Positions 13,375 to 35,224 of a stretch of DNA of 45,478 bases are shown here, piece by piece. The stretch lies in IMG/VR virus record IMGVR_UViG_2541047780_000004. One strand, 5' to 3'. A program made the translations under genes and the position numbers. The stretch comes from a virus. Taxonomy: Duplodnaviria > Heunggongvirae > Uroviricota > Caudoviricetes. Every line of letters starts with the position of its first letter. Positions within the stretch are counted from its first letter, which is position 1. The notes under the pieces were generated by a model. That model saw only the letters and a list, made by a program, of their open reading frames with translations, did no database searches and was not told where the DNA came from.

Positions 13375-14457
13375 TTAGAACTGATAAACCAGACCTACAG
13401 CGACGATGTCGTCGGTATCAATACCAGCTGTTTTGGTAAACTTACTATCGTCAATTAAGTTGATTTTGTAATCAACAAAAGTGGACATGTTTTTATTAAA
13501 GTAGTAAGTAGCACCGACATCGACATACTTGACTAAGTCTCGGTCACCATGAACACCAAGGTCTTTACCTTTTGACTGAAGGTAAGCAACAGATGGACGC
13601 AGACCGAAGTCAAACTGATATTGTGCTACTGCTTCAAAGTTTTGTGCTTTGTTTGCAATATGGTTATTACCAAAAACGGTCATATTCTGAGTTTCAGAAT
13701 ATGTGGTAGCCAGATAGATATTGTTCGCATCATATTTCAGGCCTGCAGCCCATACTTCCGCATTTTTGCCGGAGGCATTGAATTTGCTCTTACCATAGGC
13801 GACCTGACCGTCAGTGCGATCTGATTTAGCATAGGTTGCACCCACGCCGAATCCTTCATACTCATAAGTAGTGGAGAAACCGAAACCATCACCATTGGCT
13901 TCAGTTACGTCAGTGCGGTCATTTTTACCCTGATACTGAGCAGCAAAGTTCAGGCCATCGACCAGACCAAAGAAGTCGTTGTTACGATAAGTTGCAACAC
14001 CAGTAGTGCGACCAGTCATGAACACATCTGTTTGGGTCCAGGTATCACCACCGAATTCTGGCAGAACGTCAGTCCACGCACCGATGTCGTATGCTACACC
14101 GTAGTTACGGCCGTAATCGATTGAGCCGTAATCACCAAATTTCAGGCCTGCAAATGCAAGACGGGTTTTGTCTTTGGAAGAACCTTGAGATTCAGCACGG
14201 TTGCCTTTGAATTCATATTCCCACTGACCGAAACCAGTCAGTTGATCGTTGATTTGGGTTTCACCTTTGAAGCCAAGACGGGCATAAGTAGTATCACCAT
14301 CATCTGCATCATTAGAGGAGAAGTAGTGCTTGGCATTAACTTTCCCGTATAGATCCAGCTTGTTACTGTCTTTATTATAAATTTCAGCTGCCTGAGCAGA
14401 CATCGCCATCAGTACTGATGCAGCTACAGCAGAAATTGCCACTGTTAATTTTTTCAT
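13375..14457 (-). CDS. nmpC: Outer-membrane porin (NmpC/OmpC-family general bacterial porin), apparently intact
   Basis: 360-aa product from ATG 14455-14457 with AAGGG RBS; signal peptide, AEIYNKD start of mature porin, C-terminal VYQF; the longer ORF-track start is unlikely. Confidence 0.85.
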
Positions 14458-14785
14458 TGTACGCCCTTTTTTTGAACTTTTATTAAAAAATGATGTCACT
14501 GCGCGATAAATATTCATCTAATCAATGTGATTATTTCAAGATGTAAGTTTTAGTTTCTCATTTAATTTGTGAAGTAGATCTCTATTTTTATCTGAACCTT
14601 TTCTATCTAATCCTATTCATGGCTCTTGTCTGAACAAAAATAAATCTATTAGCTAATTTATATTAATGGCACTTATTTATAAGTGCTCTATAATTCTTTA
14701 GCTTAATTTAAACAAACTAAAAATAACATCGGAAATTATTAACTGGTTATTTGTTGAAGTTTTCTTATGCATTTGTGGTGGTGTT

Positions 14786-14816
14786 TTGAACACTCGGTGG
14801 CATTCTCACAAATATC
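14786..14816 (+). promoter_or_regulatory. Candidate late promoter (PR'-like)
   Basis: TTGAAC at 14786-14791 and an AT-rich -10-like hexamer about 18 bp downstream, located about 70 nt upstream of the terminator at 14884; weak evidence. Confidence 0.2.
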
Positions 14817-14883
14817 ATTTAGTAGTTTACGTACGTAAAAAATTGGTTATGCTGTTAAGAGTGGTTACTTCGTCACACAGCTT

Positions 14884-14917
14884 AAACCCGCCGTCGAGCG
14901 GGTTTTTCCATTTTTTG
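14884..14917 (+). terminator. Rho-independent terminator upstream of the lysis cassette (tR'-like)
   Basis: 8-bp stem AAACCCGC / GCGGGTTT with loop CGTCGA, followed by TTCCATTTTTT; lies about 130 nt upstream of the holin start. Confidence 0.55.
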
Positions 14918-15045
14918 AGTCTCGATATTAGCTGATAACCCAATACCTGAGTTATTCACTGACTCCGAATCTGTTACGTTTCTGCCTTTATTGCGATACG
15001 TAGTATCCCCTTAATTTACACCCGCTTTGTCTGCGAGGTGGGGTT

Positions 15046-15261
15046 ATGAAATCCATGGATAAGTTAACAACGGGTGTCGCCTATGGTACCTCAGCAGGTA
15101 GTGCCGGGTACTGGTTTTTACAGTTGCTCGATAAAGTCACGCCCTCACAGTGGGCGGCAATAGGTGTGCTGGGTAGCCTGGTATTTGGCCTGCTGACGTA
15201 CCTGACAAACCTTTATTTCAAGATTAAAGAAGATAAGCGCAAGGCTGCGAGAGGTGAATAA
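15046..15261 (+). CDS. Pinholin (phage-21 S-type class II holin) with dual-start motif
   Basis: 71-aa product close to S21 as recalled; two closely spaced Met codons (M1 and M4) fit the holin/antiholin dual-start arrangement. Confidence 0.85.
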
Positions 15262-15758
15262 TGCCTCCATCATTACGAAAAGCCGTTGCTGCTGCTATTG
15301 GTGGCGGAGCAATTGCTATAGCATCAGTGTTAATCACTGGCCCAAGTGGTAACGATGGTCTGGAAGGTGTCAGCTACATACCATACAAAGATATTGTTGG
15401 TGTATGGACTGTATGTCACGGGCATACAGGAAAAGACATCATGCTCGGTAAAACGTATACCAAAGCAGAATGCAAAGCCCTCCTGAATAAAGACCTTGCC
15501 ACGGTCGCCAGACAAATTAACCCGTACATCAAAGTCGATATACCGGAAACAATGCGCGGCGCTCTTTACTCATTCGTTTACAACGTGGGTGCTGGCAATT
15601 TCAGAACATCGACGCTTCTTCGCAAAATAAACCAGGGCGATATCAAAGGCGCATGTGATCAGCTACGTCGCTGGACATATGCTGGCGGTAAGCAATGGAA
15701 AGGTCTCATGACTCGTCGTGAGATTGAGCGTGAAATCTGTTTGTGGGGTCAGCAATGA
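15261..15758 (+). CDS. SAR endolysin (phage-21 R-type lysozyme)
   Basis: 165-aa product with an N-terminal Gly/Ala-rich signal-anchor-release segment and a lysozyme-like domain. Confidence 0.85.
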
Positions 15759-16216
15759 ACAGAGTAACCGCGATTATCTCCGCTCTGGTTATCTGCATCA
15801 TCGTCTGCCTGTCATGGGCTGTTAATCATTACCGTGATAACGCCATTACCTACAAAGCCCAGCGCGACAAAAATGCCAGAGAACTGACGCTGGCGAACGC
15901 GGCAATTACTGACATACAGATGCGTCAGCGTGATGTTGCTGCGCTCGATGCAAAATACACGAAGGAGTTAGCTGATGCGAAAGCTGAAAATGATGCTCTG
16001 CGTGATGATGTTGCCGCTGGTCGTCGTCGGTTGCACATCAAAGCAGTCTGTCAGTCAGTGCGTGAAGCCACCACCGCCTCCGGCGTGGATAATGCAGCCT
16101 CCCCCCGACTGGCAGACACCGCTGAACGGGATTATTTCACCCTCAGAGAGAGGCTGATCACTATGCAAAAACAACTGGAAGGAACCCAGAAGTATATTAA
16201 TGAGCAGTGCAGATAG
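15755..16216 (+). CDS. Rz (i-spanin)
   Basis: ATG at 15755 overlapping the endolysin stop; N-terminal transmembrane segment then coiled-coil region. Confidence 0.8.
15975..16157 (+). CDS. Rz1 (o-spanin lipoprotein), embedded in Rz in the +1 frame
   Basis: 60-aa ORF entirely inside Rz; lipobox (VVGC) and proline-rich segment ([13 protein letters not shown]). Confidence 0.7.
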
Positions 16217-16247
16217 AGCTGCCCATATCGATGGGCAACTCATGCAA

Positions 16248-16541
16248 TTATTGTGAGCAATACACACGCGCTTCCAGCGGAGTATAAATGCCTAAAGTAA
16301 TAAAACCGAGCAATCCATTTACGAATGTTTGCTGGGTTTCTGTTTTAACAACATTTTCTGCACCACCACAAATTTTTGCTGCATCGACAGTTTTCTTCTG
16401 CCCAATTCCCGAAACGAAGAAATGATGGGTGATGGTTTCCTTTGGTGTTACTGCTGTAGGTTTGTTTCCAACAGTAAACGTCTGTTGAGCACATCCTGTA
16501 ATAAGCATTGCCAGAGCGGCAGAAAACAACATTTTTTTCAT
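16248..16541 (-). CDS. bor: Bor lipoprotein (serum-resistance family)
   Basis: 97-aa product from ATG 16539-16541 with AGGA RBS; lipobox ITGC; near-identical to lambda Bor as recalled. Confidence 0.85.
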   Translation of the reverse strand: MKKMLFSAALAMLITGCAQQTFTVGNKPTAVTPKETITHHFFVSGIGQKKTVDAAKICGGAENVVKTETQQTFVNGLLGFITLGIYTPLEARVYCSQ

Positions 16542-17021
16542 CTTATTATCCTGCATTGTTAAAAACGGCAGAATCCTATGTGACAACAATTAAACGATAG
16601 TTAAATGGATTGATGAAAATTAAAACTACACAGGTGGGCTCAGACTATTGGAGGAAGTTGGGGACACTCAGAATCCTGTGGAATGAAATAAACCGGTCTA
16701 TCCGTCCATTACCCTTTTAGCTGCGCTGTATCGTCGCCGTATTCCCGCATTAACCATGACCGTAGCCCGACGGGGAATTCCTTCTGCGTGAGTGTGCGGG
16801 AATAATTAAAAACGATGCACACCGGGTTTTTACCGCGTTAATGATTCGCGGGTTTATCCCGGTGCGATGGTGGAAGAAACAGGAAGCTGTATTACAGAAA
16901 GTGCTACTACTGTATCCCGATGCGATGTATGTAATGTGAGTCAGATAATGGCACAGGATGTGGTGATGTGGCAGTCTGGAACACAGGATATATTGTCAGA
17001 ATAAGACCCGTAGGAATAAAA

Positions 17022-17348
17022 ATGAAAAGACGCCTTTTACTACTTTTTCTGTTATCTGTCCTGGCAGTGGGATGCTCGCAGCAAAAAGCTGATGAGCCCC
17101 GGCAATTAGTGACGGTGTATCCACGATATCCGGAATATGCTGCAGCAAATTATATCAAGGGGCTGGTTGAGGTTAAGTTCGATATTGGTGCTGATGGGAC
17201 TGTGACACGGATCGTTTTTCTCCGCTCAGAGCCTCATAATTTGTTTCGTGATGAAGTGGTGAAGGCCATGGCGAAATGGCGATTTGAAAAGAATCGCCCC
17301 TGTCAGGGAGTGAAGAGACAATTTATCTTTACGCCGTCACGTCCTTGA
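17022..17348 (+). CDS. Lipoprotein with TonB C-terminal-like domain
   Basis: 108-aa product from ATG 17022; signal peptide with lipobox (LAVGC); residues about 35-105 align by eye with the TonB C-terminal domain (YP..A....I.G.V.VKFD...DG.V....S.P...F..EV..AM..WR.E). Confidence 0.6.
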   Translation: MKRRLLLLFLLSVLAVGCSQQKADEPRQLVTVYPRYPEYAAANYIKGLVEVKFDIGADGTVTRIVFLRSEPHNLFRDEVVKAMAKWRFEKNRPCQGVKRQFIFTPSRP

Positions 17349-17470
17349 TGCTTCCAGGTAGAGAGGGGCTGGAAGCAGGAGAAAAATGAAAGAGCCAGCG
17401 GTTATATTTTTGTCATGGCTGACGAGGAATGATGGAAGAAGGCGTTGTATGCCACACAACGCCTCACTGT

Positions 17471-17824
17471 TCATTTCTTCTTTTTCTCTGGTGGAACCCG
17501 ATGAATAAGAGTTGCACTGGTTTCCGATGAGATGGCGATATACTCGGGCAAAGTATGCTGGCAGTTTTCCAACTGGTCAAAAATACCTGCTCTCGTCTGT
17601 TGCAATGCCTGCAGCATGCGGCGGCAATGCGCCTTGCTTTTACTAACCATCTTTCCTTCCTCTATCAGTCGCTGCGTGAACTCATCATGGAATACCAGGT
17701 AAATGCGGATGTTATCGGTTTTGGCTACGCAGCATAGTACAAAACGGACAGGTGCATCCCGGGACGGGGGAGGCGTCACATGTCCCTGTGATGGTTGTTC
17801 CGGGTAATGTACTGTGTGGGGCAT
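17471..17824 (-). CDS. Hypothetical ORF (possibly the 3' part of a frameshifted gene)
   Basis: 117-aa ORF with ATG start; overlaps ORF 17712..17963 by 113 nt in a different frame. Confidence 0.3.
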   Translation of the reverse strand: MPHTVHYPEQPSQGHVTPPPSRDAPVRFVLCCVAKTDNIRIYLVFHDEFTQRLIEEGKMVSKSKAHCRRMLQALQQTRAGIFDQLENCQHTLPEYIAISSETSATLIHRVPPEKKKK

Positions 17825-17963
17825 AAAAATGTCCGATAATTTTACTTTCTACCGCAGTTAGTTGATTCGTTGGTCCTGGTAGCACATTGGGCGAGGATTT
17901 AAATGCCAGGCAACTGAAGGATGATGTCGCAAGGGAGATAGCGAGAATATTTCTGATTTTCAT
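17712..17963 (-). CDS. Hypothetical secreted small protein (signal peptide, Cys-rich C-terminus)
   Basis: ATG at 17961-17963 with AGAGG RBS; N-terminal hydrophobic signal-like segment MKIRNILAISLATSSFSCLA. Confidence 0.35.
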   Translation of the reverse strand: MKIRNILAISLATSSFSCLAFKSSPNVLPGPTNQLTAVESKIIGHFYAPHSTLPGTTITGTCDASPVPGCTCPFCTMLRSQNR

Positions 17964-18099
17964 TTGATGATGCCTCTGTGTGAAATGACGGTAAACGACG
18001 CACTTGTGCCGGCACATAATAGCAAGCACCATAATAGATCAGATTCGATTCTTGCTGTAAGTGATAATTATTCTCGTTTTCGGGTCCTTTCCGTCGATC

Positions 18100-18299
18100 C
18101 AACAGGTTACGGGGCGGCGACCTCGCGGTTTTTCACTATTTATGAAAATTTTTCAGGGAAAATCGTGTCGGTACTTCTCGAATATAACTTTTTGTTTTTT
18201 TTAATATTGCATCCGTAAAGGTCCGACATGAAAGTGTCCGAAAATGCCTTTTTCTGGCGTTTTCATGTCGGGCCTTGTATTTGATAATGGGTTGTTTTC
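18100..18299 (+). other. cos region (cosN cohesive-end sequence GGGCGGCGACCT at 18112-18123, followed by cosB-like region)
   Basis: Match to the lambda 12-nt cohesive end as recalled, immediately upstream of the Nu1 gene. Confidence 0.8.
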
Positions 18300-18848
18300 A
18301 TGAAGGTTAATAAAAAGAGGCTTGCCGAAATTTTCAACGTGGACCCGCGGACGATTGAACGCTGGCAGTCTCAGGGACTCCCTTGCGCCTCCAAAGGTAG
18401 TAAGGGCATTGAATCTGTATTTGATACTGCCATGGCAATTCAGTGGTATGCGCAGAGGGAAACTGATATCGAAAACGAAAAGCTCCGCAAAGAACTGGAC
18501 GATTTGCGTGCGGCAGCGGAGTCAGATTTACAACCCGGCACCATTGACTATGAACGCTACCGGCTCACAAAAGCGCAGGCAGATGCGCAGGAACTGAAAA
18601 ATGCCCGTGAAGACGGAGTAGTGCTGGAAACTGAACTGTTTACCTTCATTCTGCAACGTGTGGCACAGGAGATTTCGGGGATACTTGTGCGTGTGCCGTT
18701 GACATTACAGCGTAAATATCCGGACATTTCACCATCACACCTTGATGTGGTGAAAACTGAAATCGCGAAAGCCTCCAATGTTGCAGCTAAGGCCGGTGAA
18801 AACGTGGGCGGGTGGATCGATGATTTCAGACGCGCAGAAGGCAGCTAA
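18300..18848 (+). CDS. nu1: Terminase small subunit Nu1
   Basis: 182-aa product with strong similarity to lambda Nu1 as recalled ([12 protein letters not shown]...). Confidence 0.9.
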
Positions 18849-32907: not shown

Positions 32908-34473
32908 TCACCCGGAGAAGGTAAATCCCTCAAGAGGCAGCAACTCTGCCAGTCGCTCCTCCGGCCACTCCGGCAGACGCATCAGGACGTCTGTCAACCA
33001 GGCATGCGGCTCCAGACCGTTGCGTTTCGCGGTTTCCAGCAAGCTCATTATTTGCGCGGCGCGTTCTCCCGCCATCTGCGAACCGGCGAACAGCCACGAT
33101 TTTCTGCCCAGAACCACGTTTTTGATGGCCCGTTCACACACATTATTATCCAGCGGCACCGCACCATCTTCCAGGAAGCGGCTCAGTTCCACGCGATGAG
33201 ACAGCGCATAGGCAATGGCTTTGTGTAATGCCCTTCCCGGAGAACATTGCGGTTCCTGCTCTTCAAGCCATGACCACAGTTCTTCCAGTATCGGACGGGC
33301 ATAACGCTGTCGCCACTGGCGGATTTTTTCCACGGGGCGGCTACTGATCTTCTTCTCAAGACGGTACAACCCCGCGATTTTCTTCACGGCTATGGCAGCC
33401 CGTGGATCTTTACTGATTTTATACAGGTCGGCGAAGCCCCTGCGGGCATGGGCCCAGCATCCGGCCAGCGTGATCTCCGGCACTTTGTTTGCCAGAGTCC
33501 GGTAAGCTTTATGTCCGTCGACAACCAGCGTCCCGCCCCAGCCCTGAAGCCAGTTTTCAGGATACTCATGGCTACGTCCGGTCCGGCAGTCGAAGCACAC
33601 AACTGACGGTCCCGTCCTTTCTCCACTGACGTATGCCCACAGATAACCGGAGCAGGATTTACCGCCTTTCTTCGTGTTCAGGATCTTCAGGGTAGTCTCA
33701 TCTGCATGCACCACCGGACGGTTTATCAACTCGCGATGGAGTAACGCCGCCAGGGGAGATAATGCGGCACCCGCCGCGCCAACCATGTCAGCCATCGAAC
33801 TGACGGGCAGCCCGACATCTGAACGGGCAAAGACCTGTTGCTGGCGATACAGAGGCAGGTGGTCACCGTATTTATTGATGATCACCTGTGCGATGACTGA
33901 TGGCTCAACGGCACTTTTCGGGAGGATATGTGCCGGCATTTCACCGCTGAACACCTTCTGGCAACAGGGACAACTGTATTGTGGACGGACATAACGGTTC
34001 ACCACAAAGTGAGCGGGAATATACTCCAGCTTTTCACTCACCGCATCGCGGATATAGTGCAGCGGCTCGTCACATTCAGGGCAATGGTCAGTGTCCGGCT
34101 GGATAATTTTTTCCACCCGTGGAAGATGAACCGGTAAGGGTTTGCGTATCGGGCGTGAACGGGACGCTTTTTCGTCTTCTTCAGGGGATTGCGGGAGCAG
34201 TTTATCCAGATGTGCGGTAAGCGCGGCGATATCGGCATCAACATCCTCTTCGAACAGGGAGCGTTGCATACCAGCCAGCGTTCCACATTTTTTTCCGAAG
34301 CGCTGTTGACGAACCAGTTTCAGCATTTCTTCCAGAAGCTGGATGCGCCGGCTTTTCTCCAGTAATTCCCGCTCTTTTTCGGCATTCTCCGACATGACTT
34401 CTTGTACCATGGCAAGTGCCATAGCACGCAGTTTTTCGATGTCATTCGTGGTGTTGAGAGCGGAGATATCCAT
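32908..34473 (-). CDS. IS66-family transposase (orf3), apparently intact
   Basis: Start chosen at ATG 34471-34473 (MDISALNTT...) by analogy with the MDTSLAHEN start of the other element; DDE-type IS66 transposase sequence with a CxxC-containing region. Confidence 0.85.
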   Translation of the reverse strand: MDISALNTTNDIEKLRAMALAMVQEVMSENAEKERELLEKSRRIQLLEEMLKLVRQQRFGKKCGTLAGMQRSLFEEDVDADIAALTAHLDKLLPQSPEEDEKASRSRPIRKPLPVHLPRVEKIIQPDTDHCPECDEPLHYIRDAVSEKLEYIPAHFVVNRYVRPQYSCPCCQKVFSGEMPAHILPKSAVEPSVIAQVIINKYGDHLPLYRQQQVFARSDVGLPVSSMADMVGAAGAALSPLAALLHRELINRPVVHADETTLKILNTKKGGKSCSGYLWAYVSGERTGPSVVCFDCRTGRSHEYPENWLQGWGGTLVVDGHKAYRTLANKVPEITLAGCWAHARRGFADLYKISKDPRAAIAVKKIAGLYRLEKKISSRPVEKIRQWRQRYARPILEELWSWLEEQEPQCSPGRALHKAIAYALSHRVELSRFLEDGAVPLDNNVCERAIKNVVLGRKSWLFAGSQMAGERAAQIMSLLETAKRNGLEPHAWLTDVLMRLPEWPEERLAELLPLEGFTFSG

Positions 34474-34515
34474 ACAGGGGAGTATACCACTCCAGATACG
34501 GATATTCATTATTTT

Positions 34516-34908
34516 TCACTGAGTTAGCAGTGTATTTTGCGTGTTTTCAGGGCGCAGTTCAGGTTCATTCTGCCAGACCCATTTCGTCAGGTCATGTCCC
34601 TTAACCTGCTGCCAGTCAACACCGGCAATCAGCCAGTTAAACTCGTCGGGAGTGAGGTGCCAGGCAGCGTCATTTGCACGTGGCCAGCGGAAGCTGCCTT
34701 TGTGCAGACGGCGGGTACACAACCACACCCCGTGTTTATCCCACCGGAGAACTTTGATACGCGAACGGGCTTTGTTAACAAAGACGAAGGCGGCTCCCTC
34801 ATGCCATGTCGACCGGAGTTCATCCTGTATATACTGCGTCAGTGAGTCGATGCCCCGGCGCATGTCAACAGGTTTAATTGCGATGAAGACATTATCAGGA
34901 CTGAGCAT
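34516..34908 (-). CDS. IS66-family TnpB (orf2)
   Basis: Start at ATG 34906-34908 (MLSPDNVFIAIKPVDMRRGI...), overlapping the orf1 stop. Confidence 0.8.
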   Translation of the reverse strand: MLSPDNVFIAIKPVDMRRGIDSLTQYIQDELRSTWHEGAAFVFVNKARSRIKVLRWDKHGVWLCTRRLHKGSFRWPRANDAAWHLTPDEFNWLIAGVDWQQVKGHDLTKWVWQNEPELRPENTQNTLLTQ

Positions 34909-35224
34909 ATTTGAGTGCCCTGAAGACATCGGTAAGTTGTGACGGCTGACAGCACATCCGTACTCCACCGGGAAGGAAGAGCGTGACTGGCTCATTCGTG
35001 ACGGGCTGTGGTACATCAGCATGCAGTGGTGGCGCAATATGAACGGGAAGAACGGTCGGTTCATTTGCCCGGCGTTCAGCTTTTGCGACATCCTGCGGCC
35101 ATTCGCGAAGTGATGTGAAGGGAATATCGTTGAGTTCACAGTATTGCTGACGTGTAAGACCACTGGCGCGCCAGGCAGCAACGTGCTGCCTTTTCTGTTC
35201 AATGGTCCATCGGGGTTTTGACAT
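34895..35224 (-). CDS. IS66-family orf1 (TnpA-like)
   Basis: 109-aa product with an HTH-like N-terminus (MSKPRWTIEQKRQHVAAW...). Confidence 0.8.
   Translation of the reverse strand: MSKPRWTIEQKRQHVAAWRASGLTRQQYCELNDIPFTSLREWPQDVAKAERRANEPTVLPVHIAPPLHADVPQPVTNEPVTLFLPGGVRMCCQPSQLTDVFRALKYAQS

Follow-up and report, generated by a model that had tools for sequence, protein, structure and literature searches.

Positions 17022–17348 of the IMG/VR virus record IMGVR_UViG_2541047780_000004, a stretch of 45,478 nt (hereafter the window, meaning the whole of the DNA analysed), encode a lipoprotein that is not itself TonB but has, as its mature part, a complete TonB C-terminal domain (CTD). The window is a lambdoid prophage of B2-type Escherichia coli. 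Its first 25 kb show 100% identity to ATCC 25922-like genomes, in which the prophage is located at icd, and positions 15904–18111 correspond to the right end of phage 21, 100% identical up to the cohesive end. A sequence-only reading of the window had described here a 108-aa lipoprotein with the lipobox LAVGC, had compared its mature part by eye with the TonB CTD, and had proposed that it might compete for the TonB boxes of outer-membrane transporters. The open reading frame (ORF), its Shine-Dalgarno sequence AGGA and the lipobox cysteine Cys18 are all present (Table 1). The proposed decoy function is weighed below as a tentative interpretation.

The domain as such is not a new observation, since it already stands in public annotation (RefSeq, phage 21). 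The exact protein is RefSeq WP_000830178.1, named ‘TonB family protein’ and found on at least 1000 contigs. The phage 21 record labels it ‘TonB C-terminal domain protein’, and the labels in other records include ‘Partial tonB-like membrane protein’ and ‘TonB fragment’. No functional study of this protein was found in full-text literature searches. What is new here is the TonB_C domain as a stand-alone, lipid-anchored phage protein, an architecture that is widespread but undescribed.

A lipid-anchored TonB C-terminal domain

The mature part of the protein matched Pfam PF03544 (TonB_C) over residues 33–99 with E = 7.3e-13 and 49.2 bits (gathering score 24.6), and TIGR01352 with 47.4 bits (cut-off 27.1). 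In a phmmer search against PDB sequences, residues 24–103 aligned without gaps to residues 151–230 of E. coli TonB (E ~ 1e-14, offset +127). The likeness first drawn by eye was thus confirmed, the Pfam search being one of the checks suggested with it. Structure prediction, another of those checks, agreed. An AlphaFold2 model built from a 25-sequence alignment had a mean predicted local distance difference test (pLDDT) score of 87.7, with 80 residues at 90 or above, and consisted in order of a strand (28–30), a helix (38–42), two strands (47–55 and 61–70), a helix (76–83) and a strand (94–103). The best PDB matches of this model in Foldseek were the E. coli TonB CTD structures 1u07, 2gsk_B and 2grx_C, with target-normalised template modelling (TM) scores of 0.91–0.92 and root-mean-square deviations (rmsd) of 0.9–1.5 Å. 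Two of these are receptor-bound forms, namely TonB on BtuB (2gsk_B; TM 0.92, rmsd 1.0 Å) and TonB on FhuA (2grx_C; rmsd 0.9 Å). No match was obtained in the viral structure library BFVD at E ≤ 0.001, and the fold is not represented among its viral models.

The phage domain is 38–41% identical to the CTDs of E. coli and Salmonella TonB, 38–40% in the case of E. coli, and it shares with the E. coli CTD (about residues 150–239; 1U07, 2GSK_B, 2GRX_C) the fold, the YP motif, the aromatic core and the edge strand beta3. The core residues kept are Y36, P37, F53, G59, F75, W86 and F103, corresponding to Y163, P164, F180, G186, F202, W213 and F230 of TonB, and the equivalent of TonB Y215 is F. The edge strand beta3 (residues 94–103) is of full length and was modelled as a regular monomer strand, as in the monomeric 1u07, 2gsk_B and 2grx_C. 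In contrast to this close agreement over the domain, full-length TonB equivalog models (NCBIfam PRK10819 type) scored 44.8–69.2 bits against cut-offs of 265–448, with matches only at model positions ~150–240. The N-terminal transmembrane anchor of E. coli TonB is missing, a cleavable lipoprotein signal taking its place, and there is no proline-rich spacer, only a short tether between the lipid anchor and the domain.

The N-terminus reads MKRRLLLLFLLSVLAVGC followed by SQQ, with Cys at residue 18. A basic n-region (MKRR), a hydrophobic h-region (LLLLFLLSV) and the lipobox LAVGC, which fits the pattern [LVI][ASTVI][GAS]C, together give it the features of a lipoprotein signal. Cys18 is almost invariant in the family alignment, and the lipobox is retained in a second allele (allele 2; LVMGC followed by T) as well as in homologues of Klebsiella, Raoultella and Serratia. 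The residue at +2 is Ser (Ser/Thr rather than Asp), which by the +2 rule of E. coli predicts Lol sorting to the outer membrane. Within the tether, the model places the short strand at residues 28–30, so that about nine residues are left unstructured. A longer reading from a GTG start at 16968 was rejected, as it lacks a Shine-Dalgarno sequence and lipoprotein features and is not kept in allele 2, whose ATG and ribosome-binding site line up with 17022.

Residue 33 (17118–17120), which aligns with Q160 of TonB, is Tyr in the window and Leu in the O157/O111 allele (locus L004, 3501–3827). In TonB itself, Q160L is a classical suppressor of mutations that affect the TonB boxes of FhuA and colicin M. 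The agreement of allele 2 with this substitution may be a coincidence.

Table 1 Coordinates of the TonB_C lipoprotein gene, its parts and the surrounding features in the window
Feature	Position	Strand	Basis
ORF of the 108-aa TonB_C lipoprotein, stop included	17022..17348	+	ATG start; identical to phage 21 CPT_21_73 and WP_000830178.1
Shine-Dalgarno sequence AGGA, ATG 6 nt further on	17012..17015	+	Sequence; ribosome_binding_site annotated at the same spot in the phage 21 record
Lipoprotein signal peptide, residues 1–18, lipobox LAVGC, Cys18	17022..17075	+	Sequence and family alignment
Short tether, residues 19–32, from lipid anchor to TonB_C domain	17076..17117	+	AlphaFold2 secondary structure, pLDDT profile
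TonB_C domain, residues 33–103	17118..17330	+	Profiles, phmmer, AlphaFold2, Foldseek
Possible extended -10 TGTCAGAAT (TGTTAGAAT in allele 2)	16994..17002	+	Patch conserved between alleles, read by eye; not reported by promoter scan; tentative
Hairpin directly after the stop codon, 9-bp perfect stem, 11-nt loop, no T run	17349..17377	+	
Second hairpin, 12-bp stem, 92% complementary, T-rich stretch after it	17440..17464	+	
bor/iss lipoprotein gene, left neighbour	16248..16541	-	Pfam Lambda_Bor E = 1.7e-30; iss in RefSeq
Rz i-spanin with embedded Rz1 o-spanin (15975–16157)	15743..16216	+	ORFs, phage 21 annotation
cosQ (18082–18088) and cohesive-end start GGGCGGCGACCT (18112–18123)	18082..18123	+	Phage 21 annotation mapped at 100% identity
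Conserved structured element, ~165 nt; context, not part of the gene	16722..16885	+	Alignments, pairing statistics

Alleles, relatives and distribution

Allele 2, found in O157:H7 and O111 Shiga toxin (Stx)-type prophages, has 70% protein and 73% nucleotide identity to the allele of the window. Between the two, 65% of synonymous sites differ against 16.5% of non-synonymous sites (dS ~1.5, dN/dS = 0.12), and both have exactly 108 codons with a lipobox. This ratio, together with the kept lipobox and length, indicates a functional gene under purifying selection rather than a fragment of tonB. The labels ‘TonB fragment’ and ‘partial tonB-like’ in some records speak for a non-functional leftover of a bacterial tonB gene. 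We consider such an origin very improbable. It is effectively refuted by a dN/dS of 0.12 with synonymous sites near saturation; the lipoprotein signal and the ribosome-binding site are complete, and the relatives that align over the full length are small lipoproteins rather than TonB.

Of 5426 complete E. coli genomes, 1617 (~30%) carry one or the other allele of the gene, among them those of Nissle 1917, UTI89, ATCC 25922 and O157:H7. Among phage records it is encoded by 15 of 50,697. The phage carriers are phage 21, ev017 (two records), Perceval, three PhiR phages, several Stx1a phages, JLK-2012 (two records), Lys8385Vzw and one Klebsiella prophage, the homologue of which shows 41.5% identity.

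An exhaustive HMMER search of 1.84 billion representatives revealed many proteins of 107–133 aa that align end to end with 35–46% identity, mostly with a lipobox. A genome scan, covering one genome per species with a 6-sequence alignment as the query, located homologous genes in Raoultella, Enterobacter, Serratia, Erwinia and Pantoea. At the three loci examined (L008 4998–5333, L010 4989–5315 and L012 4989–5318, in Raoultella, Serratia and Pantoea), the neighbours are ordinary chromosomal genes, namely a LacI-type regulator, DUF1440, DsbB/NhaB and a major facilitator superfamily (MFS) transporter. These chromosomal Enterobacterales lipoproteins have the same architecture of lipobox, short tether and TonB_C domain as the phage protein over its full length. 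They differ from it in their non-phage neighbourhoods, and they are annotated only as ‘TonB family protein’. The motifs YAxAN, SEPxHLFD and KWRFE are common to the phage protein and its chromosomal relatives and differ from TonB proper. Therefore, the phage gene belongs to a distinct TonB_C subfamily of small lipoproteins, and, judging from these sequence comparisons, the phage probably acquired it from the chromosome of an enterobacterium and not by excision of part of tonB.

The gene at the right end of the prophage

The gene lies between bor and cos, as the sequence-only reading had placed it, and is read in the same direction as S, R, Rz and the terminase genes. Its synteny is conserved in three lineages (21-like, Stx-like and the Klebsiella prophage; 41–72% protein identity), in all of which it directly follows the lysis cassette, is co-oriented with it and precedes the packaging genes. 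Lambda-type phages share the left flank up to ~16893 without having the gene. The gene is thus an insertion in the moron sense, that is, additional DNA separating genes that lie side by side in related phages, and its specific upstream part is only ~125 bp long (16894–17021). The proposed moron position after the lysis cassette holds to this extent. A moron in the strict sense (Hendrix/Juhala) also has a promoter and a terminator of its own and is expressed while the prophage is repressed. A sigma-70 promoter scan reported no + strand promoter upstream of the gene, and the best match to the 19-bp Fur box consensus in 16542–17021 was 11/19, the modal value in shuffles. Fur regulation was rejected on the ground of this chance-level match.

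Late transcription in lambdoid phages starts from pR' under Q antitermination. From its position after the lysis cassette and its orientation, the gene is expected to be part of this late transcript in the lytic cycle. The hairpins that had been noticed downstream of it are present (Table 1); in a terminator scan neither was a canonical intrinsic terminator, the canonical T tract being missing. In the CP-933N prophage region of O157, only 6.6% of the predicted proteins were identified in a shotgun proteome (PMC3210124).

PHROGs places the family in its lysis category, phrog_1267 (‘Rz-like spanin’) matching 17022–17345 at E = 5e-43. According to this name, the protein would be an Rz1-like spanin subunit, and it is indeed a lipoprotein encoded near lysis genes. 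Such a function is extremely improbable, as the real Rz and Rz1 are intact at 15743–16216 and 15975–16157, and as the protein is a folded 90-residue TonB_C domain encoded 800 bp away rather than a short proline-rich o-spanin. The label of phrog_1267 is likely an annotation error, the family being one of TonB_C lipoproteins. To some degree, each of the public labels ‘TonB family protein’, ‘TonB fragment’ and ‘Rz-like spanin’ misdescribes the protein.

The TonB CTD has been reported to associate with peptidoglycan. A related alternative is that the TonB_C fold binds peptidoglycan or an outer-membrane protein and thereby alters envelope stability, vesiculation, or the timing or completeness of lysis. 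Such a role would agree with the location of the gene directly after the spanin genes in the three lineages, with the lack of a promoter in the scan and with the lysis category of PHROGs. However, the window already contains a holin, a signal-arrest-release (SAR) endolysin and Rz/Rz1, the chromosomal homologues are not located beside lysis genes, and the PHROG label looks like annotation transfer rather than a tested function. Accessory genes such as bor are, in addition, known to accumulate in the region after the lysis genes. We regard an envelope or lysis role as distinctly improbable, and return to the decoy function in the next section.

Other accessory genes are found nearby. An OmpC-like porin gene (13375–14517, - strand; Pfam Porin_1, E = 2e-151) is located between the Q antiterminator and the lysis genes, so that, with bor/iss and the TonB_C lipoprotein gene, three accessory genes for outer-membrane proteins are grouped around the lysis cassette. 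In the related genome NZ_CP069447.1 (L003, 2342–5791), the tail-fibre genes of the same prophage are followed at once, just beyond the right end of the window, by sitABCD, which encodes an importer of iron and manganese that does not depend on TonB. Genes sitABCD with a Fur box have been reported on 70% of intestinal lambda-like phages (Mathieu et al. 2020, PMC6969025). The presence of sitABCD may, speculatively, be linked to a TonB-blocking function. Within the window, an IS66-family-like insertion sequence (~32908–35224) with a 533-aa transposase ORF and accessory ORFs on the - strand adjoins tail tape-measure-like coding sequence, and it is absent from this place in the otherwise identical prophage of FDAARGOS_1255. 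This insertion amid tape-measure-like sequence suggests that the prophage copy is probably defective, with the TonB_C gene still intact. Small ORFs surround the gene at 16867–17004, 17386–17508 and 17555–17737 (+ strand) and at 17471–17824 and 17712–18032 (- strand), and none of them matched a Pfam family. Of those between the gene and cos, two carry the annotation ‘hypothetical’ in the phage 21 record or RefSeq, and in the context of the O157 allele a YlcI/YnfO-family gene lies on the opposite strand at a position equivalent to that of the small ORFs following the gene.

The surroundings also allow the gene to be seen as a lysogen-fitness moron, one of a set of genes for outer-membrane remodelling and iron, that tunes TonB-dependent uptake as a brake or as a specificity filter, for example against gut bacteriocins. 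Its neighbours are outer-membrane morons (the porin and bor/iss), related prophages carry sitABCD straight after the tail genes, and the gene has remained intact in a probably defective prophage. Against this stand the lack of a Fur box and of a + strand promoter in the scan, and the low proportion of CP-933N region proteins in the O157 proteome. A function of this kind is unlikely in our assessment.

The upstream gap was described by the sequence-only reading as about 430 bp of non-coding DNA. A gap of ~430–480 bp is indeed present; it is not featureless, since it holds a conserved structured element (Table 1). This element is shared with lambdoid phages that lack the TonB_C gene, and it is located behind the spanin genes in 432 phage records, irrespective of the presence of bor or of the TonB_C gene. 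Lambda, 434, 21, Stx phages and Salmonella SPN3UB are among its carriers. Its conservation between the contexts of the two alleles is ~85%, compared with 73% for the coding sequence. A nine-sequence alignment supported a long bipartite hairpin and two smaller hairpins, with 93.4% of cells paired and 10 pairs showing compensatory double changes. None of 500 shuffles reached the values of the element, and slid controls gave 32–54% pairing. Several invariant G-U pairs favour the + strand, which is that of the late transcript. An Rfam 15 scan of 14500–18400 gave no credible match, and the element may be a structured RNA, so far undescribed, that belongs to the lambdoid late operon. In phage phi315 (L037, 396–641), an ORF labelled ‘Rz-like spanin’ overlies the element. 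The small ORFs annotated over the element are probably spurious, that of phi315 included.

A candidate decoy for TonB boxes

The C-terminal strand of TonB pairs with the TonB box by beta-augmentation, secondary structure counts more than side chains in the recognition of TonB boxes, and the TonB CTD by itself was bound to FhuA and BtuB in the crystals 2GRX and 2GSK (PMC11658791). Because the phage protein has neither a transmembrane anchor nor a proline-rich rod, it would not couple to ExbB-ExbD and would not transduce energy. A TonB-box-binding fold with a lipid anchor and a short tether, and without energy-coupling parts, suggests a decoy as the simplest function. According to this mechanism, the tether would hold the domain at the periplasmic face of the outer membrane, where TonB boxes emerge; the domain would bind them by beta-strand addition to its edge strand beta3, and host TonB would be outcompeted. 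TonB-dependent import would then fall, affecting the irreversible adsorption of T1/phi80-type phages, the uptake of group B colicins and of microcins using TonB-dependent receptors, and that of siderophores and vitamin B12. The mechanism as a whole, including its conjectural pay-off of excluding TonB-dependent phages and colicins, is tentative, and we consider it possible though somewhat short of probable.

Engineered fragments of TonB provide a parallel. When fragments 33–239, 103–239 and 122–239 are exported to the periplasm, the activity of the TonB system is inhibited (Howard et al. 2001, as cited by Kopp and Postle in bioRxiv 10.1101/2020.01.05.895219). As they are presented in that preprint, these fragments are, like the phage protein, CTD-containing periplasmic pieces uncoupled from energy, and they inhibit ferrichrome transport. 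They are artificial, soluble, longer and overexpressed, whereas the phage protein is natural, consists of the CTD only and is predicted to be membrane-tethered.

A second parallel is Llp of phage T5, a superinfection-exclusion lipoprotein. It resides in the inner leaflet of the outer membrane and binds FhuA from the periplasmic side, on a surface partially occluded by TonB binding. The protein described here is also a small phage lipoprotein, and its predicted location and putative target face match those of Llp. However, Llp and the Cor proteins of phi80, N15 and T1 are unrelated in sequence and in fold to the protein described here, whose fold is that of TonB_C. The analogy had been proposed from the outset as one of outcome and not of sequence, and in agreement with this, Pfam, NCBIfam and PHROG searches returned TonB_C and TonB models and no Cor or Llp family. 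The gene further differs from those for Llp and Cor in that it follows the lysis cassette instead of adjoining receptor-binding genes, and a binder of TonB boxes would act on many transporters and not on FhuA alone.

The same domain could also act on the energy side, by pairing with the CTD of host TonB or with the periplasmic domain of ExbD and thus trapping TonB or blocking its energisation. A soluble TonB domain also disturbs the ExbD-TonB interaction (bioRxiv 10.1101/2020.01.05.895219), and the identity to the TonB CTD with its conserved aromatic core would suit such pairing. Nevertheless, an outer-membrane anchor with a short tether would keep the domain far from ExbD in the inner membrane, and beta3 is a regular monomer strand in the model, as it is in the three TonB structures. 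We judge an energy-side target quite unlikely.

Several points weigh against a decoy of TonB boxes. Some positions implicated in contacts with the TonB box or the cork are altered, Q160 being replaced by Y (L in allele 2), R158 by T (K in allele 2) and R166 by Y. The C-terminal tip of J is 100% identical to J of phage 21 and 46% identical to lambda-type J, and there is no cor gene in the window and no cor-like gene after J; hence there is no sign of self-exclusion at a TonB-dependent receptor. The sigma-70 scan and the Fur box search gave no support for expression from a promoter of its own or under iron control. PADLOC defence models matched neither allele nor a distant homologue. Since the closest relatives are found in ordinary chromosomal contexts, the ancestral role of the family need not be anti-phage. 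Finally, a strong general block of TonB should be costly for siderophore-dependent ExPEC lysogens and for gene-carrying strains such as UTI89, Nissle and ATCC 25922, which are expected to rely on siderophore uptake.

Self-exclusion through FhuA, as in cor+ phages, was considered separately and is not supported by the identity of the J C-terminus or by gene order.

Taken together, this counter-evidence favours a weak, transporter-specific or late-only action of the decoy. In its broadest form, the decoy model describes a natural TonB mimic of temperate E. coli and Klebsiella phages that jams the TonB boxes of many transporters and so closes the TonB-dependent entry routes of T1/phi80-type phages, of group B colicins and of those microcins that rely on TonB-dependent receptors, a form that we find doubtful. 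The jamming of TonB boxes may take place specifically during SOS-triggered lytic growth, when neighbouring cells release colicins.

If the decoy model is true, exclusion would act broadly, through the energy coupling shared by all TonB-dependent transporters, and would stand beside the receptor-specific Cor and Llp. This would be a new principle of exclusion, in which the energy coupler is mimicked by a decoy instead of a single receptor being blocked, and it would be present in about 30% of E. coli genomes. It would bear on phage therapy and on the use of bacteriocins, as the carriers include probiotic, uropathogenic and enterohaemorrhagic E. coli (EHEC) strains, on siderophore-antibiotic conjugates that enter through TonB-dependent transporters, and on the balance that prophage-carrying strains strike between protection and the uptake of iron. 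The domain would also offer a natural minimal TonB-box binder usable as a tool. Should the decoy model prove wrong, the gene still encodes a very common, conserved and uncharacterised lipoprotein of the classical phage 21, predicted to reside in the outer membrane. As an annotation it is not a discovery; as a common, conserved and cheaply testable candidate for an exclusion principle, it is carried by a classical phage and by medically relevant strains.

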